The position numbers and the translations under genes were made by a program. The notes beneath the pieces were generated by a model. That model was not told where the DNA came from, made no database searches, and saw only the letters and a list, made by a program, of their open reading frames with translations. From Candidatus Heimdallarchaeum aukensis (GTDB taxonomy: Archaea > Asgardarchaeota > Heimdallarchaeia > Heimdallarchaeales > Heimdallarchaeaceae), in NCBI GenBank assembly GCA_021513695.1, contig CP084166.1:160001-224000 (forward strand): DNA of 64,000 nucleotides. Reading direction: 5' to 3'. Below, one piece after another: positions 9,209 to 38,404 of this stretch. Each line of letters starts with the position of its first letter. Within the stretch, counting starts at the first letter, position 1.

Positions 9209-10174
9209 CTATTCTCCCAAATTTTTTCTCCAGTTGTAATCTTCTTTTGCTATCAGTGTAACAGCAGAATCTTCTTTTGAATCGATGATTTTTAATTCTG
9301 TATTTTCTATAATCTTCTTTGAAAATTCTAGTATTTTTGGGTACCTTGGCATTATTTCATAAGGTAACCTTTTTCTTGCGTCTCCAACACTCATAAAACC
9401 TTTTACTTCTAGAAAATGAGCTTCTGATCTTAAAAATAATTCAGCAAAAGCTTCTGGTTCGACTAAATTGTAGTTTTCATCTACTAAAGTTAATCTTATA
9501 ACTTTTCTAGTGTTAAGCGAAGGAAGTAATTCAATTGTTTCCATCACTTTGTTCCATAGATTTGAAAAAGAAGGACGAGCAGTTTTTTTGAAACTTTCTT
9601 CAGTAGGGGCAATTAGAGTAACATAGAGTTGAGTAGGAAGAGGGTCAAGTTTCTTCAACATTTCAGGATTAGTGCCATTAGTTACTAGAAAAGTAGTCAT
9701 ATCACGATTGTGGAACTCTTGAATTAATTCTGGTAACAAAGGATAGAAAGTTGGTTCTCCACTTAAAGAAATTGCAGCATGTTTTGGATTGTAAGCTTCT
9801 TCATATAATCTTGGTTCTACTTTTGGATGATTTTTGAATCCTGCAATTAGTCTTCTTTGATGTTCTATCATTTGATCAATAATATATTCCGGTTTGTCAA
9901 CTTTTCCTCTCATTAATTCTTTGTTGTACCATGATGCACTTCTCCAGCAAAAAACACATTTTAGATTACACCATATTGTTGCAGGAGTACATTGAAGACA
10001 ACGGTGAGAAGCTATTCCGTAAAATTGTTGTTTATAGCAAAAACCTTCTCCTTTTAACGCGTGCTTTAACCAGGTGCAAATTTTTACTGCAGAGTGATTA
10101 CCAGCTATTCTGTACTGTTGTTTTTCTAGTTTGTCTTTCAATTTTGGAGGAATAATGTTTGTATTTAAACTCAT
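9209..10174 (-). CDS. taw1: archaeal tRNA 4-demethylwyosine synthase Taw1 (radical SAM, TYW1 homologue), full-length copy
   Basis: Radical-SAM CxxxCxxC 'CNLKCVFCWR'; upstream auxiliary Cys cluster 'ICTWLK...GFCYKQQFYGIASHRCLQCTP', characteristic of TYW1/Taw1; ~320 aa as in archaeal Taw1. Confidence 0.7.
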   Translation of the reverse strand: MSLNTNIIPPKLKDKLEKQQYRIAGNHSAVKICTWLKHALKGEGFCYKQQFYGIASHRCLQCTPATIWCNLKCVFCWRSASWYNKELMRGKVDKPEYIIDQMIEHQRRLIAGFKNHPKVEPRLYEEAYNPKHAAISLSGEPTFYPLLPELIQEFHNRDMTTFLVTNGTNPEMLKKLDPLPTQLYVTLIAPTEESFKKTARPSFSNLWNKVMETIELLPSLNTRKVIRLTLVDENYNLVEPEAFAELFLRSEAHFLEVKGFMSVGDARKRLPYEIMPRYPKILEFSKKIIENTELKIIDSKEDSAVTLIAKEDYNWRKNLGE

Positions 10175-10301
10175 TAGATTTACTTATTTTTCTTTATTTT
10201 TAGACTTTATCTTTATTGAAATTTTTTTTGATTAAATTTACTATAAAATTAACAAAGGAAAACAATAGATTAAAATATTTAAAAAATTAAAATATACTGA
10301 T

Positions 10302-11417
10302 ATGGTTAGTATTAAAAAAGTTCTCAAGCAACTAGAAGATTCTGATCCTATAGTTCGAAGAGATGCAATACTTACTCTTGGAGAACTAAAAGACGAAAAA
10401 GGGGTTGATCCTTTAATTAAGTGTGTTCAACAAGAAATAAAAGAAAATAGAATCACCGCTATTGTTGCACTTTCAGATATTGGAGATCATAGGGCTATTG
10501 AAATATTAATCTACTGTTTAATGGATGATGATGAAGAAATAAGACTTGCTGCTGCTCGAGCTTTAGGACGATTTACTTCTCCTCAAGCTATCACTACTTT
10601 ACTTGTTTCATTAAAAAAAGACCCAAGTGTGAGAGTTAAGAGTCGTGCAGCTCTATCTTTAGGGAGTATTGGTTCAGAACTGCCTGTTGAAGAATTACTT
10701 AAAGAATCTAAATTAGAACACCCAACCACTCTTCTTTATTCTATAAATTCTGCTTTGACAATGATAGCAAAGAAAAATGGTTATAGTTCAGTAGATGAAC
10801 TTGTTCAAAAAATAAGGGCTAAAAAGGCAGAAGTAGATGAGAAAACACCAGAGCATAAACAAATTCAGGAGAAAGAAGAGCTCGAATCTTTTCCTCGTTT
10901 ATATGACTACATTAGAAAATATGTAGCTCGAGAACTAGAAGGGGTACAAACAGTATTAAGTATTAACTCAGATGAAAAGACTGCATCAAAGAAAATAGCT
11001 GATATTTTAGCAGAAAAATTCTGGAAATTTGCTGAATGGATCGGAAAAAGAATGGGACATAAATTAACTGAATATCAATCTGATTTGCTCTGGCAGATGA
11101 TATGGGATACATCAAGGCCAATTAGAAATGAAATTTACCAAATGATAAGAGATCATCGCTCAGAATTAGAGGAATTAAATCGATTCCAGAAATGGCTCAA
11201 CAAAATAGAAGAACAAAAAGAAGAAGAAATCGTTAAAGATATTGAAAGAAGCAGACCTAAACCCATTATTCAAACTTCAAATAATGTGAAAAAAGACGAA
11301 GCAGAGACAATTAGAGCTGCAGATTTGGCAAGAAGTATTTCTTCAAATCTTGAAGAAATAATGGGCAAATATTCTAGTTGGAAAACAAGAGAGTTAAAAG
11401 ATGAAGAAGATTATTAA
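10302..11417 (+). CDS. HEAT (PBS-lyase type) repeat protein, copy 1
   Basis: Repeated 'D..VRR.A...LG' HEAT units in the N-terminal third ('DSDPIVRRDAILTLGEL', 'DEEIRLAAARALGRF', 'DPSVRVKSRAALSLGSIG'). Confidence 0.55.
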   Translation: MVSIKKVLKQLEDSDPIVRRDAILTLGELKDEKGVDPLIKCVQQEIKENRITAIVALSDIGDHRAIEILIYCLMDDDEEIRLAAARALGRFTSPQAITTLLVSLKKDPSVRVKSRAALSLGSIGSELPVEELLKESKLEHPTTLLYSINSALTMIAKKNGYSSVDELVQKIRAKKAEVDEKTPEHKQIQEKEELESFPRLYDYIRKYVARELEGVQTVLSINSDEKTASKKIADILAEKFWKFAEWIGKRMGHKLTEYQSDLLWQMIWDTSRPIRNEIYQMIRDHRSELEELNRFQKWLNKIEEQKEEEIVKDIERSRPKPIIQTSNNVKKDEAETIRAADLARSISSNLEEIMGKYSSWKTRELKDEEDY

Positions 11418-11569
11418 GCTTCTTTAAAATTCTGAAAATTGCCAAAAAAATTTTTCTAAAACAATTTTTTATTATTTATTAATTTTCGTAATACCTTGCT
11501 AATACTAAATCCTTCACGACAAAAACATATTTATTTCTGTTTACAATTGTGATATAGTAGATATCTAAG

Positions 11570-11779
11570 ATGGAATATGGGGTTAATATGAAAAAAAAGC
11601 TGATTACATTTAAAGTAACAGAAGCTATGATGAAATGGATAGCAGAAATGATGGAAAAGGGGAATTATAAAAATAGAACAGAATTAATTGTAGATGCTCT
11701 TAGAGAGTTTCTCATCCAAGAAAGAATGGTTGAAGATCAGGAAGAACTAGAAGCAATTTTTGAAAGAATTGATGAATAG
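11570..11779 (+). CDS. ribbon-helix-helix (CopG/Arc/MetJ-like) small DNA-binding protein, copy 1
   Basis: 69 aa; beta-strand 'KLITFKVTEAM' followed by two helices ending 'NRTELIVDALREFL', the typical RHH pattern. Confidence 0.5.
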   Translation: MEYGVNMKKKLITFKVTEAMMKWIAEMMEKGNYKNRTELIVDALREFLIQERMVEDQEELEAIFERIDE

Positions 11780-11821
11780 TTCTCTTATAACTCCTTCTGT
11801 ATTTCTGTTATTTTAGCCCTA

Positions 11822-12628
11822 TTATTCAAACCAATACATAGATGTTTTTTCGAAACATTCTTTTGTTAAATTTTGTGAAAGCTTAAAATAATTAGTAACT
11901 TTTTTATCTATCCTTTTTCTGAAAATCACTGCTTGATTAAAATCTCTATCTGATTTTATCCAGTTTTTTGTAATTTCTTTCATTGTTACCCAGATATCAG
12001 AGGAAGGAAAAGGGATTGGTATCTCTCTAAAAAGGTTTGAAGTTATGTCTCTTACAATAAAACTTTCTACTATAAATTGAACAAATGAGGAGGAAAGATA
12101 ACCAAACAACCCATAAAGGTCTATTTGTTCATCAGGAATTATGATGTCAAAAATGTCGTTTACGTAATAGCCTTCTAGGTCCAAACCAATAAAATACTTC
12201 TTTCCTCTATTTCTACGGACTATTTTTGGTTTTTCAAATATTTGATGATCTCCTGGTGCTCCTAATACTTTTCTGTCATAAATTATTTTTTCTTTTCCTG
12301 GAAAAACTTCAAAGTTTATGACACCTTCTTTGTAATTATTTGAAAAGATATTGTGTCTTACTATTTCTACAGATTTAATTTCATTTGAATATTTCTTTTT
12401 TTTAATATACTTCTCTTTGTATCTCTTTGTTATCGTTAATCCTCGTCTAATAAAAGAATGTTCTTTTAATTTAGGGTAATTATTCAGGATAGTGCTGATT
12501 TCCTTTTGACTTTCAGAACTAAAATTTGAAAAAAGAAAAAGAGGAGGGAAAATGAAGCTATAGTCTATTTTGTGTTCATGATTATCTTTTCTTTTATGAA
12601 ATTTAATGTAATTACTTTCGTTTTTTAA
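11822..12628 (-). pseudogene. 3' fragment (C-terminal ~269 codons) of the N6-adenine DNA methyltransferase gene, created by the tandem duplication
   Basis: Identical by eye to 15170-15976, the C-terminal part of the 663-aa MTase. It lacks the N-terminal catalytic motifs and any upstream start. The ORF track reports only the last 120 codons, from an internal TTG. Confidence 0.7.
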
Positions 12629-13524
12629 AAATCGATGATTTTTAATTCTGTATTTTCTATAATCTTCTTTGAAAATTCTAGTATTTTTGGGTACCTTGGC
12701 ATTATTTCATAAGGTAACCTTTTTCTTGCGTCTCCAACACTCATAAAACCTTTTACTTCTAGAAAATGAGCTTCTGATCTTAAAAATAATTCAGCAAAAG
12801 CTTCTGGTTCGACTAAATTGTAGTTTTCATCTACTAAAGTTAATCTTATAACTTTTCTAGTGTTAAGCGAAGGAAGTAATTCAATTGTTTCCATCACTTT
12901 GTTCCATAGATTTGAAAAAGAAGGACGAGCAGTTTTTTTGAAACTTTCTTCAGTAGGGGCAATTAGAGTAACATAGAGTTGAGTAGGAAGAGGGTCAAGT
13001 TTCTTCAACATTTCAGGATTAGTGCCATTAGTTACTAGAAAAGTAGTCATATCACGATTGTGGAACTCTTGAATTAATTCTGGTAACAAAGGATAGAAAG
13101 TTGGTTCTCCACTTAAAGAAATTGCAGCATGTTTTGGATTGTAAGCTTCTTCATATAATCTTGGTTCTACTTTTGGATGATTTTTGAATCCTGCAATTAG
13201 TCTTCTTTGATGTTCTATCATTTGATCAATAATATATTCCGGTTTGTCAACTTTTCCTCTCATTAATTCTTTGTTGTACCATGATGCACTTCTCCAGCAA
13301 AAAACACATTTTAGATTACACCATATTGTTGCAGGAGTACATTGAAGACAACGGTGAGAAGCTATTCCGTAAAATTGTTGTTTATAGCAAAAACCTTCTC
13401 CTTTTAACGCGTGCTTTAACCAGGTGCAAATTTTTACTGCAGAGTGATTACCAGCTATTCTGTACTGTTGTTTTTCTAGTTTGTCTTTCAATTTTGGAGG
13501 AATAATGTTTGTATTTAAACTCAT
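12625..13524 (-). CDS. taw1: Taw1 copy 2, 3'-truncated by the duplication junction (C-terminal ~24 aa replaced by 'F' then stop)
   Basis: Identical to 9283-10174 over its length. The protein ends '...LKIIDF' instead of '...LKIIDSKEDSAVTLIAKEDYNWRKNLGE'. Confidence 0.6.
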   Translation of the reverse strand: MSLNTNIIPPKLKDKLEKQQYRIAGNHSAVKICTWLKHALKGEGFCYKQQFYGIASHRCLQCTPATIWCNLKCVFCWRSASWYNKELMRGKVDKPEYIIDQMIEHQRRLIAGFKNHPKVEPRLYEEAYNPKHAAISLSGEPTFYPLLPELIQEFHNRDMTTFLVTNGTNPEMLKKLDPLPTQLYVTLIAPTEESFKKTARPSFSNLWNKVMETIELLPSLNTRKVIRLTLVDENYNLVEPEAFAELFLRSEAHFLEVKGFMSVGDARKRLPYEIMPRYPKILEFSKKIIENTELKIIDF

Positions 13525-13649
13525 TAGATTTACTTATTTTCTTTATTTTTAGACTTTATCTTTATTGAAATTTTTTTGATTAAATTTACTATAAAATTAA
13601 CAAAGGAAAACAATAGATTAAAATATTTAAAAAATTAAAATATACTGAT

Positions 13650-14765
13650 ATGGTTAGTATTAAAAAAGTTCTCAAGCAACTAGAAGATTCTGATCCTATA
13701 GTTCGAAGAGATGCAATACTTACTCTTGGAGAACTAAAAGACGAAAAAGGGGTTGATCCTTTAATTAAGTGTGTTCAACAAGAAATAAAAGAAAATAGAA
13801 TCACCGCTATTGTTGCACTTTCAGATATTGGAGATCATAGGGCTATTGAAATATTAATCTACTGTTTAATGGATGATGATGAAGAAATAAGACTTGCTGC
13901 TGCTCGAGCTTTAGGACGATTTACTTCTCCTCAAGCTATCACTACTTTACTTGTTTCATTAAAAAAAGACCCAAGTGTGAGAGTTAAGAGTCGTGCAGCT
14001 CTATCTTTAGGGAGTATTGGTTCAGAACTGCCTGTTGAAGAATTACTTAAAGAATCTAAATTAGAACACCCAACCACTCTTCTTTATTCTATAAATTCTG
14101 CTTTGACAATGATAGCAAAGAAAAATGGTTATAGTTCAGTAGATGAACTTGTTCAAAAAATAAGGGCTAAAAAGGCAGAAGTAGATGAGAAAACACCAGA
14201 GCATAAACAAATTCAGGAGAAAGAAGAGCTCGAATCTTTTCCTCGTTTATATGACTACATTAGAAAATATGTAGCTCGAGAACTAGAAGGGGTACAAACA
14301 GTATTAAGTATTAACTCAGATGAAAAGACTGCATCAAAGAAAATAGCTGATATTTTAGCAGAAAAATTCTGGAAATTTGCTGAATGGATCGGAAAAAGAA
14401 TGGGACATAAATTAACTGAATATCAATCTGATTTGCTCTGGCAGATGATATGGGATACATCAAGGCCAATTAGAAATGAAATTTACCAAATGATAAGAGA
14501 TCATCGCTCAGAATTAGAGGAATTAAATCGATTCCAGAAATGGCTCAACAAAATAGAAGAACAAAAAGAAGAAGAAATCGTTAAAGATATTGAAAGAAGC
14601 AGACCTAAACCCATTATTCAAACTTCAAATAATGTGAAAAAAGACGAAGCAGAGACAATTAGAGCTGCAGATTTGGCAAGAAGTATTTCTTCAAATCTTG
14701 AAGAAATAATGGGCAAATATTCTAGTTGGAAAACAAGAGAGTTAAAAGATGAAGAAGATTATTAA
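13650..14765 (+). CDS. HEAT repeat protein, copy 2 (identical to 10302-11417)
   Basis: The 371-aa translation is identical to copy 1. Confidence 0.55.
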   Translation: MVSIKKVLKQLEDSDPIVRRDAILTLGELKDEKGVDPLIKCVQQEIKENRITAIVALSDIGDHRAIEILIYCLMDDDEEIRLAAARALGRFTSPQAITTLLVSLKKDPSVRVKSRAALSLGSIGSELPVEELLKESKLEHPTTLLYSINSALTMIAKKNGYSSVDELVQKIRAKKAEVDEKTPEHKQIQEKEELESFPRLYDYIRKYVARELEGVQTVLSINSDEKTASKKIADILAEKFWKFAEWIGKRMGHKLTEYQSDLLWQMIWDTSRPIRNEIYQMIRDHRSELEELNRFQKWLNKIEEQKEEEIVKDIERSRPKPIIQTSNNVKKDEAETIRAADLARSISSNLEEIMGKYSSWKTRELKDEEDY

Positions 14766-14917
14766 GCTTCTTTAAAATTCTGAAAATTGCCAAAAAAATT
14801 TTTCTAAAACAATTTTTTATTATTTATTAATTTTCGTAATACCTTGCTAATACTAAATCCTTCACGACAAAAACATATTTATTTCTGTTTACAATTGTGA
14901 TATAGTAGATATCTAAG

Positions 14918-15127
14918 ATGGAATATGGGGTTAATATGAAAAAAAAGCTGATTACATTTAAAGTAACAGAAGCTATGATGAAATGGATAGCAGAAATGAT
15001 GGAAAAGGGGAATTATAAAAATAGAACAGAATTAATTGTAGATGCTCTTAGAGAGTTTCTCATCCAAGAAAGAATGGTTGAAGATCAGGAAGAACTAGAA
15101 GCAATTTTTGAAAGAATTGATGAATAG
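14918..15127 (+). CDS. RHH small DNA-binding protein, copy 2
   Basis: Identical to 11570-11779; convergent with, and 42 bp from, the 3' end of the MTase gene. Confidence 0.5.
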   Translation: MEYGVNMKKKLITFKVTEAMMKWIAEMMEKGNYKNRTELIVDALREFLIQERMVEDQEELEAIFERIDE

Positions 15128-15169
15128 TTCTCTTATAACTCCTTCTGTATTTCTGTTATTTTAGCCCTA

Positions 15170-17161
15170 TTATTCAAACCAATACATAGATGTTTTTTCG
15201 AAACATTCTTTTGTTAAATTTTGTGAAAGCTTAAAATAATTAGTAACTTTTTTATCTATCCTTTTTCTGAAAATCACTGCTTGATTAAAATCTCTATCTG
15301 ATTTTATCCAGTTTTTTGTAATTTCTTTCATTGTTACCCAGATATCAGAGGAAGGAAAAGGGATTGGTATCTCTCTAAAAAGGTTTGAAGTTATGTCTCT
15401 TACAATAAAACTTTCTACTATAAATTGAACAAATGAGGAGGAAAGATAACCAAACAACCCATAAAGGTCTATTTGTTCATCAGGAATTATGATGTCAAAA
15501 ATGTCGTTTACGTAATAGCCTTCTAGGTCCAAACCAATAAAATACTTCTTTCCTCTATTTCTACGGACTATTTTTGGTTTTTCAAATATTTGATGATCTC
15601 CTGGTGCTCCTAATACTTTTCTGTCATAAATTATTTTTTCTTTTCCTGGAAAAACTTCAAAGTTTATGACACCTTCTTTGTAATTATTTGAAAAGATATT
15701 GTGTCTTACTATTTCTACAGATTTAATTTCATTTGAATATTTCTTTTTTTTAATATACTTCTCTTTGTATCTCTTTGTTATCGTTAATCCTCGTCTAATA
15801 AAAGAATGTTCTTTTAATTTAGGGTAATTATTCAGGATAGTGCTGATTTCCTTTTGACTTTCAGAACTAAAATTTGAAAAAAGAAAAAGAGGAGGGAAAA
15901 TGAAGCTATAGTCTATTTTGTGTTCATGATTATCTTTTCTTTTATGAAATTTAATGTAATTACTTTCGTTTTTTAAATCCATTGATAACAAAAAGAATTC
16001 ATTGGAAACGTCTTTAAAGGAATAATCTAAATCTGTGTAAATTTCTACATCATATCTATTATCTTTGAGGTGTTTTCTCCATTTCTTGCCATAAGTATCA
16101 GTTATGATACCTGAAGGTAATATTAATCCTACTTTCTCTTTGGATAAACTTTCTGCAATGATCAAAAAAGGTAGAGCAAAATTATATTTTCCAAAGATTC
16201 TATTTTTATAAGGTTCTCTCTTTAAGAATTCTTTATATCTATTATTTATTTTTTTATATTCTATCCACGGTGGATTTCCAATAACAAAATCAAAAAATTT
16301 TTTCTGAAGACTTAAACTTTCATCAAAAAATATTTCAGGCAAATCAACAAAAAAGCTAAATTTGGATAGAGAAGGATATTTCTTCGATATTTCATCTCTT
16401 TTTGTTAAACATTCTTTTATATCTTGAAAAGAAATTTCTTTTTTACCAAATATCACTTCTCTTCTTTTTTCACGAAGTATCGCTAAAAGTTTCAAAAAAG
16501 TTGTATTTTTTCTTTCTGACATTTGCTTTATTATTCTTTCATCATAACCAAGAATGCTATCTCCGTATTTTGAGATTAAAGGAAGTAATTTTCTTTTTCT
16601 ATTATCTTGTAACATGAAAAAGAGTTTGAAAACTTGAAATTCATAAATAAATGGATCAACTTCAACTGAATATGGCATAATCTCTTGTTTTTCAAAAGCT
16701 GGGTAGAGAAAATCTCCTATTCCTGAAGAAATATCGATAACTGTTTTAGTTTTTTTAGAATTGTTACTCAAAATATCTAATAAATCATATACCTTTTTAA
16801 CAAGAATCCTATTAGTAAAATATTGACCTGTTAATCTCGTTTTATCTTGAATAAGTGATAAAATATTAACTTCATTTATTGTCTTGATTATATTTTTGAT
16901 TTGTTCAAAAACCCAAACTGGTAACTTTTTTTCTAGAACTCTGAGTTTTTCTAACGATAGAAGTATTTGCTTATCATCTTGATTTAGATTAACCAGATTT
17001 ATTAACGAAGTTTTTTGTTGATTTTGTTCAGATGAAAAGGATGAAGAATTGTAAATAAAGTAAAACTTTACTATCATCGATTTTAATTCATTAACTGAAA
17101 CTTTGTACCTACTAGCCTTTTTCTGAATTCTACTATGTAGATTTTCCTCTTTTATTTCCAT
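15170..17161 (-). CDS. gamma-class N6-adenine DNA methyltransferase with a large C-terminal target-recognition region (no nuclease domain seen)
   Basis: Motif X 'GQYFTNRILV'; motif I 'VIDISSGIGDFL'; motif IV 'FVIGNPPWIEY' (NPPW). The order X-I-IV indicates gamma class; ~360 aa follow motif IV. Confidence 0.75.
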   Translation of the reverse strand: MEIKEENLHSRIQKKASRYKVSVNELKSMIVKFYFIYNSSSFSSEQNQQKTSLINLVNLNQDDKQILLSLEKLRVLEKKLPVWVFEQIKNIIKTINEVNILSLIQDKTRLTGQYFTNRILVKKVYDLLDILSNNSKKTKTVIDISSGIGDFLYPAFEKQEIMPYSVEVDPFIYEFQVFKLFFMLQDNRKRKLLPLISKYGDSILGYDERIIKQMSERKNTTFLKLLAILREKRREVIFGKKEISFQDIKECLTKRDEISKKYPSLSKFSFFVDLPEIFFDESLSLQKKFFDFVIGNPPWIEYKKINNRYKEFLKREPYKNRIFGKYNFALPFLIIAESLSKEKVGLILPSGIITDTYGKKWRKHLKDNRYDVEIYTDLDYSFKDVSNEFFLLSMDLKNESNYIKFHKRKDNHEHKIDYSFIFPPLFLFSNFSSESQKEISTILNNYPKLKEHSFIRRGLTITKRYKEKYIKKKKYSNEIKSVEIVRHNIFSNNYKEGVINFEVFPGKEKIIYDRKVLGAPGDHQIFEKPKIVRRNRGKKYFIGLDLEGYYVNDIFDIIIPDEQIDLYGLFGYLSSSFVQFIVESFIVRDITSNLFREIPIPFPSSDIWVTMKEITKNWIKSDRDFNQAVIFRKRIDKKVTNYFKLSQNLTKECFEKTSMYWFE

Positions 17162-17243
17162 TATTTCCCATTTTAATTTATAAGATAAAAAAATTCTCTT
17201 AAATACTTAAAGCTACAGATATCTTTTTATTTTTTAGCTACGT

Positions 17244-19307
17244 ATGTCTCATATATTGAAGCAAAATGTAAAGATACCCAAAGAAATACTCCCATTCTAT
17301 AAATTATTTAATGATTATGAGAAAGAACAATTTCAAAAATTGTCATCTTTAAACCAAATGTCTAATTTAAATGAAATAGGTACATTATTGTTAGATATCT
17401 TTAATAAAGAAATTGAACACACTTCATATTTTATGCTTGCTCTTGGCAGAATATTATATCATACTTCAGATATGTTAAATCTTGAAAATATCTATAAAGA
17501 AACCGATTCTGCTGAAATAGGGTTATGGTACGCTTTCTTGAGAATTATTAGTTCAGACGATGTACGAAAGGAAGAAATTCTATTAGATCAACTGAAAGAA
17601 AAACTAAATTATTCCTTATTGCACCTTCTTTGGACTATTGTTGAGCTTAATTTTTATGTATATTCAGGAAATCAATTTAATTTTAGAGAAACTAAAGATA
17701 TTATAATTAATCGTTTTTTAGTTGAAGATATCGAAAATAGAGAAAAACATAAAGTGATTTTCAAGCTTTTTTATTCATATATTTTAATTATAGAAATAAA
17801 TTTGAATTTTCTACAGAATCACATTTCATATGCTAAAGACCTACTTATCCATGCTTCTGATATTATAGTTACTTTAGAAGATAGGATTTTAGAGTCGATG
17901 CAACTTAGATTATCTGCATTAATTGAGTTAAGAAAAAACAACTTTTCAACAGCTCAACATCTATTTTTACGTTCTCTTGCTCTCGCAGATATGTTAAAAG
18001 AAATAAGATTTGCAATACAAGTTAATTCAGAAATTGGAGACCTATATCTACAGATGGGCCATGTTAAAGATGCAAAATTGTTTTACGATAAATCACTAGA
18101 GCTTTTAAAAAAGCATGTACCTTATGATTCTTCATTGCAAGGCATTCTACTTTCTAAGATTGCTGATTACTATTTTGTGAATGAAAAGTTTCAAAAGTCT
18201 CTAGATTTGCTTGATGAAGCTCTTTCATTCTTTAAAGTAGATAATAATTTTTCATTTCAGATCAAACTCAAATACATTGAATATCTTTTAAATTTGAAAA
18301 AAGTTAATAAAGCAGAATCTTTGTTGGTTTCAAGTTTTCAAAAGAAAGACAATTATCTTTATTTGCAGAATCAGAGTTTTTGCCTGTATTTAAGAGGATT
18401 TATTGAATTTCTTAAGAAGAATTTTGGTAAAGCCCAGTCTTTCCTCTATGAGGCAATAGGGATTGCAGATAGAACAGGAGATGAATGGACCAGTTCAAAA
18501 TCTTTAGTTCTTCTTTTAATTTTGCTTCTTCTAAAGTATAACTTAGCTTCAAAAGTAGACGATATAGTAGAAGCAGACAAGTGTGTAGATGATATAATTA
18601 CATTTTTAGAAGAAAAAGCGAAGTTTAAAGAACTTGCTCAGATATATCTAATTCGAGCTAAGATAAGAAAAATACTTCTCGACTTTGAGACTTCACTTTT
18701 TTTACTGAAAACAGGAGAAAATATAGCTAGACAGTATTATCCTGAACTTATTACTAAATATGAAGAAAATATTGATGAGATTTCTAGACTCTTAAATTTT
18801 GAAAACATTGCAGAGACAGAAACACCCTCCATAGATTTCAAGGAAGATATTGACACAATTTTTCAAATTCTTATCAGACAGACTAAAAAACTTGGTTCTC
18901 CAATAGAAAGTATTACAATAGCCGTACTTATTTTTCATTCAAGCGGTATACCAGTTCGGACTTATCGTTCTGAAGAGCTCTATATTAGTGATGATATGAT
19001 CTTTGGTGGTTTTGTGTCAGCAATAAGACATCTGCTTGATGAATTGTTCTATTCCCAAGAATCAAAGTCTTTAAGTGTTGATCATGGACAGTACAAGCTT
19101 CTAATTGAGTTTTACAAGAATTTATTTTCTATTGTTATTCTTACTGTTCGAGATAGCTTCTTGTTACGCAGAAAGATGCATCAATTAGTTAGTTTTGTAG
19201 CTTCAAAGGATCTGTTCAAAGAGAAATATTTTGGTAAAATTGATGAACTTGCTTTGAGAGACATTGATTCATTTGTTGAGAAGTTGTTTAAAGTCAAAAA
19301 GAATTAG
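17244..19307 (+). CDS. TPR-like helical repeat protein with a C-terminal Roadblock/LC7-like domain (paralogue A)
   Basis: N-terminal amphipathic helical repeats. The C-terminal ~130 aa share motifs with the next gene: 'SGIPVRTY', 'MIFGGFVSAIRHLLDELF', 'FSIVILTVRDSFLLRRKMHQLV'. Confidence 0.45.
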   Translation: MSHILKQNVKIPKEILPFYKLFNDYEKEQFQKLSSLNQMSNLNEIGTLLLDIFNKEIEHTSYFMLALGRILYHTSDMLNLENIYKETDSAEIGLWYAFLRIISSDDVRKEEILLDQLKEKLNYSLLHLLWTIVELNFYVYSGNQFNFRETKDIIINRFLVEDIENREKHKVIFKLFYSYILIIEINLNFLQNHISYAKDLLIHASDIIVTLEDRILESMQLRLSALIELRKNNFSTAQHLFLRSLALADMLKEIRFAIQVNSEIGDLYLQMGHVKDAKLFYDKSLELLKKHVPYDSSLQGILLSKIADYYFVNEKFQKSLDLLDEALSFFKVDNNFSFQIKLKYIEYLLNLKKVNKAESLLVSSFQKKDNYLYLQNQSFCLYLRGFIEFLKKNFGKAQSFLYEAIGIADRTGDEWTSSKSLVLLLILLLLKYNLASKVDDIVEADKCVDDIITFLEEKAKFKELAQIYLIRAKIRKILLDFETSLFLLKTGENIARQYYPELITKYEENIDEISRLLNFENIAETETPSIDFKEDIDTIFQILIRQTKKLGSPIESITIAVLIFHSSGIPVRTYRSEELYISDDMIFGGFVSAIRHLLDELFYSQESKSLSVDHGQYKLLIEFYKNLFSIVILTVRDSFLLRRKMHQLVSFVASKDLFKEKYFGKIDELALRDIDSFVEKLFKVKKN

Positions 19308-19389: not shown

Positions 19390-21474
19390 ATGTCAGTAGT
19401 ATACAGTTTCCCTAGGGAATATAGTCATTATATCCCTCTTTTCACTAGAGAAGAACAAGATTTGATTAACAACTTTTCATCAAAAGTTAATAAAGATACT
19501 TCAATGGGAATCTTGAAAGATATCCTTTTAGATATTTTAGATAATCTTTCTTCCCCTTCTCTCTATTTCTTATACTCACTAGGTAAAGTTTTATTCATTT
19601 CTAGTAATTATAATCTACTTGAAGAACTCAATAAGAAATATAAAAGTGAGAGTTTAGAGCTGTGGTGGGGAAATGCTCTAATAAGGCGAACTGAGAATGA
19701 TAAAGTAATTAATCTCGCTTTGAAAATACTCAACAAGAATCCTGAAGAAAAAATAATTAGATTACATTGTTATGCCCTTTTAGCTAATGCATATGCAAAT
19801 ATGGAAAGTGAAAATCAATATAGACATTATATGCAAGAACTCTATCATGAGTCAATTATCTTTCATAGAGATTTAGATAAAGAAAAAATTGTAATAAATG
19901 ATATCCTTCTTTTTGCACATGCTATTGACATTTGGAAAGAGAGAATATCTGCACCTCTTTTAAAACTTGAAAACAAAATTGATGTAGCTTTTCAAATTGC
20001 AAAAGAACTAGGAGATCGTTATCACCTTGGAAGGTTGTACAACATAAGAGGAGTAATTTACAGATATGTAGGAAGAATCTCTGATTCATTTGAATTTATA
20101 AATAAGGCTATAAATTATTATAAAGCAGTTGGAGCTAGGAGAGGAGTAGCAGCAGCAAAAGCAAATCTTGCAACAATTTATACAATTAAAAATGAACTAG
20201 ATAAAGCCGAGAAATTACTAAAAGAGTCTCTCTCAATTTTTTTGGAAGTAGGTGATTACAAAAATCAATCCTTAATTCACTCTTCTTTAGGTGAAATTGC
20301 TATTGCTAAAGGAGATTATCACTCTGCTTTAGAATTGTATGAAGAATCTGTAAGTATATTGGAGCAAATAAACGCACACGAACTACAAGTTTATTGCTCT
20401 TTAGGCGAATTATATTATTTCTTAGGAAATAAAGAAAAAATGAAAATAATAATGAAATTCCTGCAAGAGACAGACAAAAAGAAAGAAGGATTCGTCTATG
20501 GATATTATAATTTGTTTAAAGCTCTTTTAGAAATTGATAACATGAATTATGGTAAAGCAAATGAATACTTGGAAAAAGCTTTGTCTATAAGTGATACAAG
20601 AGGAACAGGATTTTTCTCTGCAAAAATACTTCTTCAACTGTCATTGATCAACATAAAGCAATATGATTCTTTTCAAGAAAAGGAGTATTTAGAAAAAGCA
20701 AAACAGTACATAAATGATTTAGAACCATTTTATGAAGAGTTGAATAAAACAATTGAACATGTAATAATTCTATTGGTTCTTTCAAAAATATATGCAGTAA
20801 TGGAAGAATATACGAAGTCTTTTAACATTTTACAAAAAGCAAAAGATCGTCTTAATTTGTCAAAGAAAGAAAGAAAAAAGGATAAATATTACCACTTAAT
20901 AGAAAATAGAATTAAAGAACTTGAAGAAATCTTTTCAAAAGCCAAAACCGAAACATCATTCCAAAATGAAACTTTTCAATATGAAATTAAAGAAATGGAA
21001 AGTATAAGCATTAGACAAATATCAGAATATGAAAAAGAATTAAGAACTTCAATATTGGCACTTTTAATAGTACATCCTTCAGGAATACCTTTAATGAATT
21101 ATACGCTCAAGAGGTCTAGTCAATTTAGAGATGAACTAATGTTTGGAGGTTTTATTGTAGCTGTAAAAGACATGATAGAAGAGTTATTCTCTAATCCAAT
21201 GCAGAGTAAAGTAATGGTCATTAGCTATGGTAATAATAAGATAATAATGGAGCACAGTCCAAAGAGAAATTTTAGTGTAATTATTTTATCATCAAAGGAT
21301 AGTTTTATTCTACGAAGAAAAATTCATCGATTAACTCAAAATCTACAAGATATAGAGCTCCCGCAACAGTATATTGGAGAATTGACCCCTAAAACAGCTT
21401 CAAGAATAAATGAAGAAGTAAAAAATGTTTTTGGAGAAAACTTAATGCTATATGAAGGTGCTGTTCATATTTAG
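19390..21474 (+). CDS. TPR repeat protein with a C-terminal Roadblock/LC7-like domain (paralogue B)
   Basis: TPR-like units ('YHLGRLYNIRGVIY', 'AAAKANLATIYTIKNELDKAEKLLKESLSIF', 'SLIHSSLGEIAIAKGDYHSALELYEESV'). C-terminus: 'SGIPLMNY', 'LMFGGFIVAVKDMIEELF', 'FSVIILSSKDSFILRRKIHRLT'. Confidence 0.5.
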   Translation: MSVVYSFPREYSHYIPLFTREEQDLINNFSSKVNKDTSMGILKDILLDILDNLSSPSLYFLYSLGKVLFISSNYNLLEELNKKYKSESLELWWGNALIRRTENDKVINLALKILNKNPEEKIIRLHCYALLANAYANMESENQYRHYMQELYHESIIFHRDLDKEKIVINDILLFAHAIDIWKERISAPLLKLENKIDVAFQIAKELGDRYHLGRLYNIRGVIYRYVGRISDSFEFINKAINYYKAVGARRGVAAAKANLATIYTIKNELDKAEKLLKESLSIFLEVGDYKNQSLIHSSLGEIAIAKGDYHSALELYEESVSILEQINAHELQVYCSLGELYYFLGNKEKMKIIMKFLQETDKKKEGFVYGYYNLFKALLEIDNMNYGKANEYLEKALSISDTRGTGFFSAKILLQLSLINIKQYDSFQEKEYLEKAKQYINDLEPFYEELNKTIEHVIILLVLSKIYAVMEEYTKSFNILQKAKDRLNLSKKERKKDKYYHLIENRIKELEEIFSKAKTETSFQNETFQYEIKEMESISIRQISEYEKELRTSILALLIVHPSGIPLMNYTLKRSSQFRDELMFGGFIVAVKDMIEELFSNPMQSKVMVISYGNNKIIMEHSPKRNFSVIILSSKDSFILRRKIHRLTQNLQDIELPQQYIGELTPKTASRINEEVKNVFGENLMLYEGAVHI

Positions 21475-23809: not shown

Positions 23810-25255
23810 ATGGAGGCCGTCGTCAAAACCTTGAAAGTGAGAATAAAGAATGAGGTATTGACGACAAGGAAGAAGGAAAGGTTAAGGAGAATAACAGGAA
23901 GAGATACGAGAATAATAGAAAAGTATGTGAGAATAATACACCAAAATAGAAAAAAAATATGTATAAGAACTAAAAAAGGGAAAATAAGAGTACATAGAGG
24001 AAAATTAGACGATTTAACATTAACTACTTCAAGAGTAAAAGAAGAAGAGAGGAGAAAGACTTTTCCTCACGACCTTAAGAAAATGTTCCCCTATTGTTCT
24101 CACAATGAGTTTCAAGAGTGTAGAGATATAGCTGTACAACTATATAAACAATGGTATAGACCTAACACCACTCGTCCTCCAATAAAGAGAGCGAGAAGAC
24201 AACTAATTAATGGAAAGAGGTTCATCCTCATCCATCTACCAAAAGAAAAGAATAACACTCTCACTCGTTGGTGGGTAGGAATAAGAGACTCGTTAGACAC
24301 TTGGAAAAGAAATACCCCCTATCATCAGAAGTTGTGGTTACCTTTAGAGATGAGCGATTTCCACCAGAAAGAGTTAAAAAAAGGACAGATAAAAGGTCTA
24401 GAACTGCGATACAAACGTTCTACAAGTGAGTGGTGGGTATATTTTCAACTAAAAGTTCTTCCTCCTTCTTCTTTTCTAAGCGATAATTCCTCTTCTTCTC
24501 TTCCTCCAGCTGTGCTGGGAATAGATCTGGGGATAAACATTCCTGCTGCAGGAGTGTTACTAACCCCTAAAAAGAAGTTAACTATTAAACAGATAAAATT
24601 CTAGTATACCAAACAGTGGAATATAATCAATCATAGATATAAACTCAAACTTTCCCGTCTTCAGAGGAAAGCGGCTTTAAACGACCAGTCGGGTAAAAAA
24701 CACCAAGTTTATCGTTTTCTTGGTCTTCTTCGTCGGAGATATAGAAACGTTAAACTGGCGTATATCCACCAATTTGTAAACGATGTTGTGCGGACAATAG
24801 AGACTTATGCACAAGTGTATGACCTTTTCGTCGTCGTAGGTTATCCTAAACATATCCGTGAAGAGAAAGGAAAAGGGAAAGTTTCTCGTCAATTTCGCAG
24901 AAAACTTCATCAGTGGAACTATGCTCTTGTTCTTGGTCTTCTCCGTCGGGCATTAATATTAAGAGGTTTCGAATCTCACCGTATTCTCACTTTAGACGAA
25001 AGAGGAACATCCTCTCACTGTTCTCGTTGTGGAACGAAAGTCTCTCGCCCTGTCAGAGGGTTAATCTCTTGTTCTTCTTGTAATTACACTTTCCACTCTG
25101 ACCTCACAGGAGCAATGAATATCGCTCGAAGGTTCCTTGGTCATCTTTTCCGTCCTCGTGCAACAACTATTACTGACCACCTTACTGGCTATAAATTCAG
25201 TCTCACCCATTTCACTGTTTGCCAAGGGCTCAGCCATTGGTTGCAGTCCCAGTAG
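23810..25255 (+). pseudogene. tnpB: tnpB-like (OrfB) RNA-guided-nuclease-family gene; single reading frame interrupted only by one in-frame TAG at 24602-24604
   Basis: N-terminal 'KTLKVRIKNEVLTTRKKERLRRITG' (TnpB helix-turn-helix-like start); RuvC-I 'LGIDLGINIPAAGV'; 'LDERGTSSHCSRCG...CSSCNYTFHSDLTGAMNIARR' (Zn finger plus RuvC-III). Starts 23810 and 24788 differ by 978 = 3x326. I translated 24605-24787 and found it open in the same frame. Confidence 0.75.
24602..24604 (+). other. in-frame amber (TAG) codon inside the tnpB-like frame
   Basis: '...ata aaa ttc TAG tat acc aaa cag tgg...'; it is the only stop in 1446 nt. Confidence 0.8.
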
Positions 25256-25527
25256 ACAAAAAAAGAAACTAATTACTCTTATCTTTGAGGATAGTTATCT
25301 TTTTTTGTCTCTCGTGGAGCGAAGAAAAAGTTCCTTTCTTCTTTATGATTCCCACGATTCGTGTATGATGTCTGTCTCAACCCCTTCTTTCATTGTATGC
25401 TCTGGTTGAGTTCGCAAGAGATCAAACTCTCTTCTAGTTTTTTCTCTTGAAAGACTGAGTGCGAAAAACTTACGTAAAAAAGTAAATCATGAAAAAGAGT
25501 TAAAATCTTCTTTGTTTTTTTTTTGAT

Positions 25528-36199: not shown

Positions 36200-36910
36200 A
36201 TGCAGATAGAAGGAGAATATACATATGCCAAATTTATAGAAAGGCCAAACAGGTTTTTAGCAAAAGTAAAACTTTATTCTACAGAAAAAGTAGAGTATTG
36301 TCATGTTCCAGATCCAGGAAGATTAAAGGAATTACTTTTACCTAACGTTGAAGTTTTTTTAAGAAAAGAAAAGAGTCAAATTAGAAAAACAAAATATTCT
36401 CTAATAGGTGTTAAAGCGGAAAATGGTACTTGGGTCAACATTGACTCACAGATTAGTAATAAGCTCTTTTATTTAGAGATGAAAAAAATTGAAAATTTTA
36501 GTAACTATAAGATCCTAAAGAAAGAATTTAGTTTAGGAAAAAGTAGAATAGACTTCTTGTTAAGAAATGTTGAAAACAGTAAGCAAGCTTTGGTTGAAGT
36601 GAAAAGTGTTACTTTGGTTGAAGAAAACACAGCTTTATTTCCTGATGCTCCGACGAAGAGAGGAGTAAAGCATCTGAAAGAACTTGAAGAAGCGGTTAAA
36701 GAAAACAAATATAATGCTTTTATTGTTTTTATTGTAAAGAGATCTGATGCTAAAAGTTTTAGTCCTAATTGGGAAAGAGATAAAAATTTTGCTAGCGCAC
36801 TAGTTGAAAGTTCTAAAAAAGGAGTTAAAATAATAGCTGTTGTATGCTCTTTTTCTCCTGAAAGAAAGGAATTGAGTATAATAAATAAAATCCCTATATT
36901 TCTGAATTAA
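36200..36910 (+). CDS. sfsA: SfsA-family protein (sugar-fermentation-stimulation / nuclease-like)
   Basis: 'RPNRFLAKV...EYCHVPDPGRL' matches the SfsA N-terminal OB-like domain; 236 aa. Confidence 0.65.
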   Translation: MQIEGEYTYAKFIERPNRFLAKVKLYSTEKVEYCHVPDPGRLKELLLPNVEVFLRKEKSQIRKTKYSLIGVKAENGTWVNIDSQISNKLFYLEMKKIENFSNYKILKKEFSLGKSRIDFLLRNVENSKQALVEVKSVTLVEENTALFPDAPTKRGVKHLKELEEAVKENKYNAFIVFIVKRSDAKSFSPNWERDKNFASALVESSKKGVKIIAVVCSFSPERKELSIINKIPIFLN

Positions 36911-36928: not shown

Positions 36929-38404
36929 TTAACTTAACGATTTTTTTCTCATTTTCTCTATATATTCTTGACTATAACCAAACAAAATAAACTTTCTAGA
37001 ATTTTCAAAAGTGATTTTCACTGAAATTTCTTGTTCATTATCTAAAAATATTTCAGGTAGTAGCATGTTTGATTTTATATTTTCAATTTTTATTATAGGT
37101 ATAGATTTTAGAACTCTGTCTTTTGTTGTTAATACAAATAAATGTTCATCAACAATTGTCCATTTTGCTACATATTCTTTTTTTACGACCTCATTTATTG
37201 AATTTATATAGATATCATCGAAGAAAACTTGTTCTGTTTTTATTATTGCTTCTATTATGAAACTGGTCAGTAGGTAGAGAACTATAAACCAATAAACATA
37301 ATTTTCATCCCAAAAATGAATAACAAATAAAACCATTGAAACAATTAAGAACGCAAAATTACCCAGAAATTGAAGAAAATATTTGTGTGCCTTTTTTAAT
37401 CCCTCTTTTACCTTCGTTTTCTGTTTATAAGCAGTAAAATGCTTAAAATTTAGATATTTTTCATAATCGTTTTCATAATCTTTAAAGAAAAAAGGTTGAA
37501 AGATTTTTTTCCATTTAACTACTCTTGCAGGAATTTTGTAAAACATTTCTTCTTCATTACCAAATGATATTTTAGATGAAATCCAATTTTTAGGTAGATC
37601 TTCTTTTTCTTTTACTCTTAAGAAAACATTTTTTATTTCTCTTTTCATTTTTACTTTTTCTCTTAATTTTACTATTTTAAAATATGAAAAAATTAGTATA
37701 ATTGAGAAAAAAGTACTAAGTACAGTAAGTGTGAAAGTTGTATAATATGCAGTTTTCAGACTTATATTATTGTTAAAAGCAATATAGAGCGAGGGTAATG
37801 TTAGGGCCAACATAAACAAAATCCCTATTGCTTGAATATTGTTTTCTAATCTAAAATTCTGATTTCTAGTTCTCCTAATAGATTTCTTTAACAAATAAGA
37901 TAGTAATTTAAAGGCTTTGTAGTATGCTAAAAAGAAGAAAGTAGGAAAAAGTACAAACATACATATATACAACCATATTGAAAATATAGAAGGTTGTGTG
38001 TAATCTTCTGTTCTAAGAAATGAGCTGAAAATAAGAAAGCTAAGTAAAGTTGAGAAACCTAAAACAAATATGTTAGGAAAAATAAAAGTCCAAATCGCAA
38101 ATGATTCCATTATTAACTTCCTTGAATCAACGATTTGATTCAAAGGATATAAATCAGAAAGAGGATCTTGAATGCTTTTATCATCTGTTTCATTCTTGAA
38201 ATAGTAGCCCTCAAATATTATTTCTTTCTGATTCTTTGATTTCCAATTAACAAAATCTATTATTAGTTCTCTTTGGTTATTGGAAATATCTTTGGTATGG
38301 ATGTTGTAATCTTCAATTTCTCCTTTTTTTCTAAAATAATCAGTTTTAATCCTGACAGATTTTTTATTTCTTGAAATATATTTTTCTTTATTTGTTACCT
38401 TCAT
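36929..38404 (-). CDS. polytopic membrane protein with a C-terminal PH-like (bPH/YdbT-type) domain
   Basis: ~95-aa soluble N-terminus, then at least six hydrophobic helices, then a C-terminal beta-rich ~80 aa ('LFVLTTKDRVLKSIPIIKIENI...ISVKITFENSRKFILFGYSQEYIEKM'). Starts 4 bp after the helicase stop. Confidence 0.45.
   Translation of the reverse strand: MKVTNKEKYISRNKKSVRIKTDYFRKKGEIEDYNIHTKDISNNQRELIIDFVNWKSKNQKEIIFEGYYFKNETDDKSIQDPLSDLYPLNQIVDSRKLIMESFAIWTFIFPNIFVLGFSTLLSFLIFSSFLRTEDYTQPSIFSIWLYICMFVLFPTFFFLAYYKAFKLLSYLLKKSIRRTRNQNFRLENNIQAIGILFMLALTLPSLYIAFNNNISLKTAYYTTFTLTVLSTFFSIILIFSYFKIVKLREKVKMKREIKNVFLRVKEKEDLPKNWISSKISFGNEEEMFYKIPARVVKWKKIFQPFFFKDYENDYEKYLNFKHFTAYKQKTKVKEGLKKAHKYFLQFLGNFAFLIVSMVLFVIHFWDENYVYWFIVLYLLTSFIIEAIIKTEQVFFDDIYINSINEVVKKEYVAKWTIVDEHLFVLTTKDRVLKSIPIIKIENIKSNMLLPEIFLDNEQEISVKITFENSRKFILFGYSQEYIEKMRKKSLS

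Follow-up and report, generated by a model that had tools for sequence, protein, structure and literature searches.

A probable orphan gamma-class DNA adenine methyltransferase at a conserved site in Heimdallarchaeaceae genomes

What does a DNA methyltransferase (MTase) do when its gene stands apart from any restriction enzyme? This question is raised by a 663-aa protein encoded in a 64,000-nucleotide stretch of the Candidatus Heimdallarchaeum aukensis genome (contig CP084166.1, positions 160,001 to 224,000; hereafter the window). An initial annotation called the protein an apparently solitary gamma-class N6-adenine MTase and left two options: an orphan or regulatory enzyme, or half of a restriction-modification (R-M) system whose nuclease is an uncharacterised neighbour. 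Our data favor the first option. The protein is likely a vertically inherited orphan gamma-class DNA N6-methyladenine (m6A) MTase of the TaqI/BseCI/CamA type, without a cognate nuclease, that lays down a constant chromosomal mark. Directly observed are its domain architecture, the intactness of its motifs, its modelled fold, a narrow distribution by vertical descent, conserved synteny, purifying selection and the lack of a linked nuclease. Its DNA substrate, m6A product, fixed target sequence and regulatory role are what we infer. Feature coordinates are collected in Table 1.

We observed the motifs in gamma-class order, as annotated for X, I and IV: X (residues 112-116, in GQYFTNRILV at aa 112-121), I (DISSGIGDF, aa 143-151), II (E167), III (G200-D201) and IV (NPPW, aa 296-299). 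Motif VIII lies around F382-E388, and the target-recognition domain (TRD) begins after ~400. Pfam placed Eco57I (PF07669) on aa 164-370 (3.3e-14, 53.8 bits vs cutoff 25.3) and TaqI_C (PF12950) on aa 510-593 (1.6e-8, 35.2 bits vs cutoff 26.5; 38.9 bits when the C-terminus was scanned alone). A helical insert separates motifs III and IV, and the C-terminal tail is partly alignable to the M.BseCI C-terminus. The TRD had first been put at ~360 aa, which is too long because motifs V-VIII take up aa 300-400; it spans about 200 aa (~400-605) and is followed by a helical tail. Neither the Pfam scan nor the structural model revealed a nuclease or helicase domain, in line with the annotated lack of a PD-(D/E)xK, HNH or helicase module. 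The N-terminal 105 aa are helical in the model and gave zero Pfam matches, and the PD-(D/E)xK nuclease fusion of Type IIG/IIL enzymes was not found there. An NCBIfam scan gave no meaningful MTase match, and the PADLOC IIG, PglX and DrmMI models scored negligibly (IIG and PglX E 0.002-0.007; PglX 0.0074). As far as sequence and model can tell, the protein is of the gamma class in motif order, intact catalytic and S-adenosylmethionine (SAM) motifs, fold, and the combination of Eco57I with TaqI_C.

We compared an AlphaFold (AF2) model of the MTase (predicted local distance difference test, pLDDT, 74.7; predicted template modeling score, pTM, 0.73) with solved structures using Foldseek. The top matches, aligned over both lobes, were exclusively DNA adenine MTases: CamA (2.5e-16; TM 0.60 on target), M.BseCI (2.2e-14), BrxX/PglX and M.TaqI (4.7e-10). 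A search of PDB sequences with a profile of the MTase family also retrieved CamA (3.4e-11) and M.BseCI; a profile was needed, as single-sequence phmmer against PDB sequences gave nothing useful. The adenine-cage residues Tyr30 and Phe253 of CamA align to Y114 and F382, and the tyrosine of its NPPY motif to W299. Because all top structural matches are DNA adenine MTases, the model makes DNA the most probable substrate. The enzyme would act as a monomer. In its N-terminal Rossmann-type lobe, Y114, W299 (of NPPW) and F382 would form an aromatic cage, into which the target adenine would be flipped to receive a methyl group from SAM; recognition of the DNA sequence would fall to the C-terminal TaqI_C-type lobe. 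The result would be a constant chromosomal m6A mark, most likely with a regulatory or housekeeping role rather than one in protection from a cognate nuclease.

We searched for a nuclease partner by running Pfam on most un-nested open reading frames (ORFs) of ≥90 aa outside the duplicated copies described below, and then PADLOC on those left unassigned. No nuclease-like gene was found near the MTase among these window ORFs, and none was found in the loci of 25+ syntenic relatives. The neighbors, among which a nuclease had been suspected, are TPR, HEAT and Taw1 (radical-SAM) genes, joined in relatives by a longin-like gene. The TPR, HEAT and Taw1 genes are conserved, under strong purifying selection and lack a nuclease domain. 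The BREX genes brxA/B/C, pglZ and brxL are likewise absent from the window ORFs. Among the window proteins scanned, just two carry restriction-type domains, an SfsA homologue (36200-36910) and a RING plus ResIII/DEAD helicase (38409-41393). Both were rejected as restriction partners, as they lie 19-21 kb off and were not typed as defence genes.

We next describe how the family is distributed. A 71% identical MTase is encoded by the sister species Ca. Heimdallarchaeum endolithica PR6 (CP084167.1), and an identical protein is on record from a Heimdallarchaeota contig. Wu et al. 2022 (PMC8813620) published both closed Heimdallarchaeum genomes. Among 5.8 billion proteins, a word-indexed search returned just eight MTase clusters, and a profile search run exhaustively over 1.84 billion representatives returned 15 members of the family (E ≤ 1e-30). 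Of the full-length members, the weakest reached 528 bits, against 104 bits for the next unrelated protein; beyond this gap lie ~2,900 more distant Eco57I/TaqI_C-type proteins. When one genome per prokaryotic species was scanned, we found 25 MTase loci, all in Heimdallarchaeota metagenome-assembled genomes (one labelled Thorarchaeota). Identity across these loci was 33-38%, the sister species excepted.

Where the flanks suffice, gene order is conserved: TPR-b, TPR-a, the divergent MTase, (a longin-like gene), RHH, HEAT and Taw1. The block continues past Taw1 with a 131-151-aa ORF, GtrA, a ~585-aa ORF and AFOR. Further metagenome contigs beyond the 25 representatives carry the MTase in the same slot. 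When loci were retrieved by way of the HEAT gene rather than the MTase, the MTase was present in both of the two metagenome loci long enough to judge. R-M systems are typically mobile and patchy (PMC10609329). A slot shared by 25+ species is the opposite of such behavior: within Heimdallarchaeaceae the MTase has been passed on vertically at one chromosomal position, surrounded by housekeeping genes. These data support the orphan option of the initial annotation.

The same data bear on the option that the MTase belongs to a Type II R-M system as its modification half, the nuclease being unlinked or an unrecognised neighbor. Type II nucleases often elude profile searches, and PADLOC assigned the protein to generic MTase_II models only (3.6e-14). 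Outside the clade, its closest relatives are Type IIG-like proteins of ~1000 aa, one of which contains an HSDR_N nuclease domain, and the SfsA homologue with its restriction-endonuclease-type domain is encoded 19 kb away. Set against this are a position kept in 25+ species at 33-38% identity, zero nucleases in the syntenic loci, and conserved neighbors that are TPR, HEAT, radical-SAM or longin-like proteins. The SfsA family is widespread, of housekeeping type, and its gene here is not adjacent. We regard the R-M option as unlikely.

We assessed conservation over 18 MTase family sequences. Invariant residues include G112/T116 (X), D143/G147/G149/F151 (I), E167, G200-D201, N296-P-P-W299 and F382/N387/E388; both NPPW and the SAM-binding D-x-S/A-x-G-x-G-x-F were unchanged in 18 of 18. 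In the TRD, many positions rich in Arg, Asn and Asp are invariant as well: R456-R457-G458, R533-R-N-R-G537 (RRNRG), N552-D-I-F-D556 and R588-D-I-x-S-N593. Between the window and H. endolithica, the synonymous divergence (dS) of the MTase matches that of its neighbors (0.68 vs 0.43-0.93), so the two genes are orthologues and neither is a replacement. The ratio of nonsynonymous to synonymous divergence (dN/dS) was 0.24 for the MTase, compared to 0.04-0.09 for the neighbors. Six other lineage pairs showed the same excess (0.16-0.28 vs roughly 0.04-0.16 for most neighbors), which makes it a family trait. Variable parts of the protein are the N-terminus, aa ~391-450 and the C-terminal tail, and residues 450-600 are 85-92% identical with a dN/dS of 0.07-0.15. 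The MTase is thus under purifying selection that is strongest on the recognition core, yet it evolves faster than most surrounding genes.

A dN/dS several-fold above that of the neighbors is also what a decaying, functionless relic of an R-M or Type IIG system might show, and the N-terminal helical region could be a vestigial Type IIG linker. We consider a relic highly improbable, as 13 of the 15 representative family clusters are full-length (the remaining two are fragments) and tblastn matches run over most of its length at the majority of species loci. No catalytic motif varies, and dN/dS stays well below 1, including the low values in the TRD. With no linked nuclease, a conserved locus and purifying selection, the MTase fits the taxon-persistent orphan type represented by Dam, CcrM and CamA.

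Several observations weigh against a constant mark laid down by a family-wide orphan enzyme. The MTase is the fastest or among the fastest genes in the block, with about 2-6x the dN/dS of its neighbors. Since it evolves fast and TRD residues ~391-450 vary, its specificity may differ between lineages, and the target may not be constant. The 25 species loci were retrieved through the MTase itself, which limits what they say about its presence in all Heimdallarchaeaceae. The nuclease search spanned 64 kb here and ~20 kb in relatives, and an unlinked nuclease would be beyond its reach. Confidence in the structural model is moderate overall, and pLDDT falls to only 50-58 over aa 460-520. The published Nanopore data for Ca. 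H. aukensis are from amplified DNA, and a literature search for Heimdallarchaeum methylation or methylome data found nothing.

We found a small gene that accompanies the MTase in other species. At least 17 other loci have a 172-186-aa longin-like gene 3' of the MTase and in the same orientation (for example L005 12075-12593, L012 12012-12536 and L010 3793-4332, in our numbering of loci). When nothing intervenes, ~46-100 bp separate the two genes; two loci have another ORF between them. In the AlphaFold model (pLDDT 76), the longin-like protein follows the order beta-beta-alpha-beta-beta-beta-alpha. The best PDB matches to this model, though weak (E 2e-3 to 1e-2), agree with one another: they are the longin domains of Npr2/Nprl, of FNIP and of a Lokiarchaeal Roadblock-Longin protein. 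This fold means that the small MTase-linked gene is not a nuclease, and it was rejected as a lost restriction enzyme; by eye, we saw no conserved PD-(D/E)xK. A profile comparison of the longin-like ORF with the TPR C-termini showed no similarity. Neither the window nor H. endolithica has the gene, a loss in the genus Heimdallarchaeum, and a few other loci with the MTase have it degraded or not at all. At 0.11-0.22, the dN/dS of the longin-like gene is raised like that of the MTase. We also considered whether fast MTase evolution is peculiar to the genus without the longin gene and rejected this, as the excess is equally present in other lineage pairs.

These neighbors raise the question of whether the MTase was exapted for an RNA or protein substrate, or works with the flanking TPR and longin-like proteins. 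RNA m6A/m2G MTases and protein glutamine MTases have an (N/D)PP(Y/F/W) motif too. In most relatives the MTase is followed by a co-directional longin-fold gene, the TPR paralogues are always divergent from the MTase, and the tRNA-modification gene Taw1 is close by. On the other side, the two-lobe fold including the TRD matches DNA adenine MTases, and TaqI_C scores above the Pfam threshold. Several lineages, this genus among them, have the MTase but have lost the longin gene or carry a degraded one, and Taw1 lies two genes away with an orientation that changes between lineages. A different substrate or partnership of this kind is very unlikely. A combined version, in which the enzyme lays down a constant m6A mark and its activity is also tied to the flanking longin-like and TPR proteins, is suggested by the operon-like arrangement of the MTase and longin genes in most species. 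It would link GTPase-type signaling to DNA methylation, or involve a new substrate; we hold it to be improbable.

The RHH gene was annotated as lying 42 bp from the MTase 3' end, and this is correct (convergent; gap 15128-15169; PF01402). The suggestion that it encodes a C-protein-like regulator did not hold up. C-proteins are helix-turn-helix proteins located upstream of a nuclease gene, and the product here is a ribbon-helix-helix protein. In other species the longin-like gene and inserted genes stand between it and the MTase, at a distance of up to ~1.9 kb. Close species share 92-97% identity in this protein (dN/dS about 0.05), a housekeeping-like rate. We found nothing that ties the RHH gene specifically to the MTase, and regard it as a conserved syntenic neighbor. 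Across the family the RHH protein is highly conserved, with an identity of ~58% over 48 aa at the deepest comparisons. Its NCBIfam resemblances are weak and far below cutoffs (NikR N-terminal domains, ParD antitoxin and haloarchaeal CdrS; E ~3e-5 to 1e-4).

On the other side of the MTase, the annotated geometry of two TPR paralogues transcribed divergently from an 82-bp region stood, as did their TPR assignment. The Roadblock label found no support in Pfam: their C-terminal ~135-aa domains gave no match even at E ≤ 10. Relatives have two or three such paralogues in tandem. By eye, the intergenic region appears to contain TATA-like stretches.

Table 1. Coordinates of the MTase, its parts and its neighborhood in the window
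Feature	Position	Strand	Remarks
MTase gene, intact; gamma-class N6-adenine, Eco57I-type catalytic domain and TaqI_C TRD (predicted)	15170-17161	-	663 aa, ATG start
MTase N-terminal extension	16847-17161	-	aa 1-105; all-helical; no family match; least conserved part
MTase catalytic domain	15962-16846	-	aa 106-400
MTase motif X	16814-16828	-	
MTase motif I	16709-16735	-	
MTase motif IV	16265-16276	-	NPPW
MTase TRD	15347-15961	-	aa ~401-605; best conserved stretch aa 450-600
MTase C-terminal helical tail and stop codon	15170-15346	-	aa 606-663; predicted from the model
Divergent intergenic region between MTase and first TPR gene	17162-17243		82 bp, A+T-rich
First TPR paralogue	17244-19307	+	687 aa; divergent from MTase in every relative; no nuclease domain
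Second TPR paralogue	19390-21474	+	694 aa; as above
Ribbon-helix-helix (RHH) gene	14918-15127	+	69 aa; PF01402, 5.4e-5, 23.4 bits vs cutoff 20.5
Tandem duplication, copy 1	9280-12629		Taw1 minus last ~23 codons, HEAT, RHH, MTase 3' fragment
Tandem duplication, copy 2	12630-15977		3'-truncated Taw1, HEAT, RHH, 3' part of intact MTase
Duplicated MTase 3' fragment	11822-12629	-	codons ~396-663 (TRD and tail); open frame
Junction-truncated Taw1 copy	12625-13524	-	299 aa vs 321

The MTase gene is also touched by a 3.35-kb tandem duplication whose breakpoint had been placed inside it. We confirmed the right boundary at 15977/15978, in codon ~395. The copies lie head-to-tail with zero substitutions and two single-T indels, both in the Taw1-HEAT spacer. 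The junction at 12629/12630 is clean, with a few bases of microhomology, and fuses MTase codon ~395 to the Taw1 3' end. Intact Taw1 occupies 9209-10174, its last ~23 codons (9209-9279) lying outside the repeat. The first possible start codon of the duplicated MTase 3' fragment is a TTG at 12184, and judging by its sequence the fragment is probably not expressed.

This repeat is about as likely to be a scaffolding artefact as a very recent duplication specific to the strain. The locus is single-copy in the sister species and in L034, an independent contig from a Joint Genome Institute (JGI) metagenome with ~99% nucleotide identity. Only the lengths of two T homopolymers distinguish the copies, and it is copy 2 that deviates (T4/T7, compared to T5/T8 in copy 1 and L034). 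The Ca. H. aukensis assembly consists of SPAdes contigs scaffolded with Nanopore reads of DNA amplified by multiple displacement amplification (MDA) and polished with Pilon. These points favor an artefact. In contrast, short-read assembly would collapse a true duplication, so that the single-copy contig from another sample is compatible with one, and the junction is clean with its microhomology. The exact 299-aa truncated Taw1 product has no record in public assemblies and so gives no independent confirmation of the junction. The intact MTase gene is genuine under either explanation; the L034 MTase differs from it by one residue, H9L. Users of the published Ca. H. aukensis genome should nevertheless be cautious about this 3.35-kb probable assembly problem or very recent duplication. 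We also observed that divergence from L034 is patchy (window 13650-14765 vs L034 3758-4873): the HEAT gene has 29 nucleotide differences, the 2-kb MTase gene 1 and the RHH gene 0. This suggests recombination between strains.

Other features of the region are recorded here in their own right. A possible TnpB remnant lies at 23810-25409 (+), where a 155-aa ORF with a Cas12f1-like TNB domain follows a family-less 264-aa ORF. TnpB-like genes or fragments and a DDE transposase occur in the syntenic block of relatives (L001 4594-5517, L006/L007 ~9429-9764, L011 4238-5530 and L029 12036-13295). The 994-aa protein at 38409-41393 (-) joins an N-terminal RING finger (PF13639, aa 29-72) to a ResIII/DEAD SF2 helicase, a fusion that is eukaryote-like in its architecture although the genome is that of an Asgard archaeon. 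Next come a 491-aa ORF without a family match (36929-38404, -) and the SfsA homologue (+); the latter combines an OB domain with the restriction-endonuclease-type domain.

The MTase clade is a concrete candidate for a lineage-wide chromosomal m6A mark in Heimdallarchaeaceae. Lineage-fixed orphan DNA MTases such as Dam, CcrM and CamA are usually regulatory, and no orphan DNA MTase in Asgard archaea was described in the literature we searched. The enzyme can be tested by heterologous expression, with sequence available from two closed genomes. The Heimdallarchaeaceae lineage is described as phylogenetically nearest to eukaryotes. Our finding has no bearing on eukaryotic 6mA enzymes. Those belong to a different family, MT-A70.

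How does this MTase compare with known systems? Fullmer et al. 2019, cited in a survey of archaeal MTases, reportedly described persistent orphan MTases in archaea. Such enzymes are documented in that survey (PMC10609329), in Halobacteria and others, and Asgard archaea are represented in it by a single Lokiarchaeota genome. They share with the present MTase a retention across a taxon without a nuclease, but belong to another protein family and another lineage. Type IIG/IIL enzymes (Eco57I, MmeI) and BREX PglX/BrxX share the Eco57I catalytic domain with a helical insert and TaqI_C, and the nearest sequence relatives outside the clade have a Type IIG/IIL-like architecture. The MTase differs from these enzymes in lacking a nuclease domain at its N-terminus and BREX genes in its vicinity. 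M.TaqI and M.BseCI share the two-lobe fold and a TaqI_C-type recognition domain; theirs are genes that adjoin a cognate restriction enzyme, whereas none is linked to the MTase in 25+ loci.

The closest solved relative and functional analogue is CamA of Clostridioides difficile (PDB 7LNI/7LT5; PMC8187626), which is also the best profile and fold match. Both are gamma-class monomers with an N-terminal catalytic domain, a C-terminal TRD, an SxGxG-type motif I and an aromatic adenine cage. Both lack a cognate nuclease, and both are conserved in one taxon and rare elsewhere. At ~15% identity, CamA is not an orthologue of the Heimdallarchaeaceae MTase. It has NPPY where the MTase has NPPW, and only the MTase carries the extra ~105-aa helical N-terminus and the helical insert between motifs III and IV. 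The taxon that retains CamA is a bacterial species; the taxon that retains the MTase is an archaeal family.

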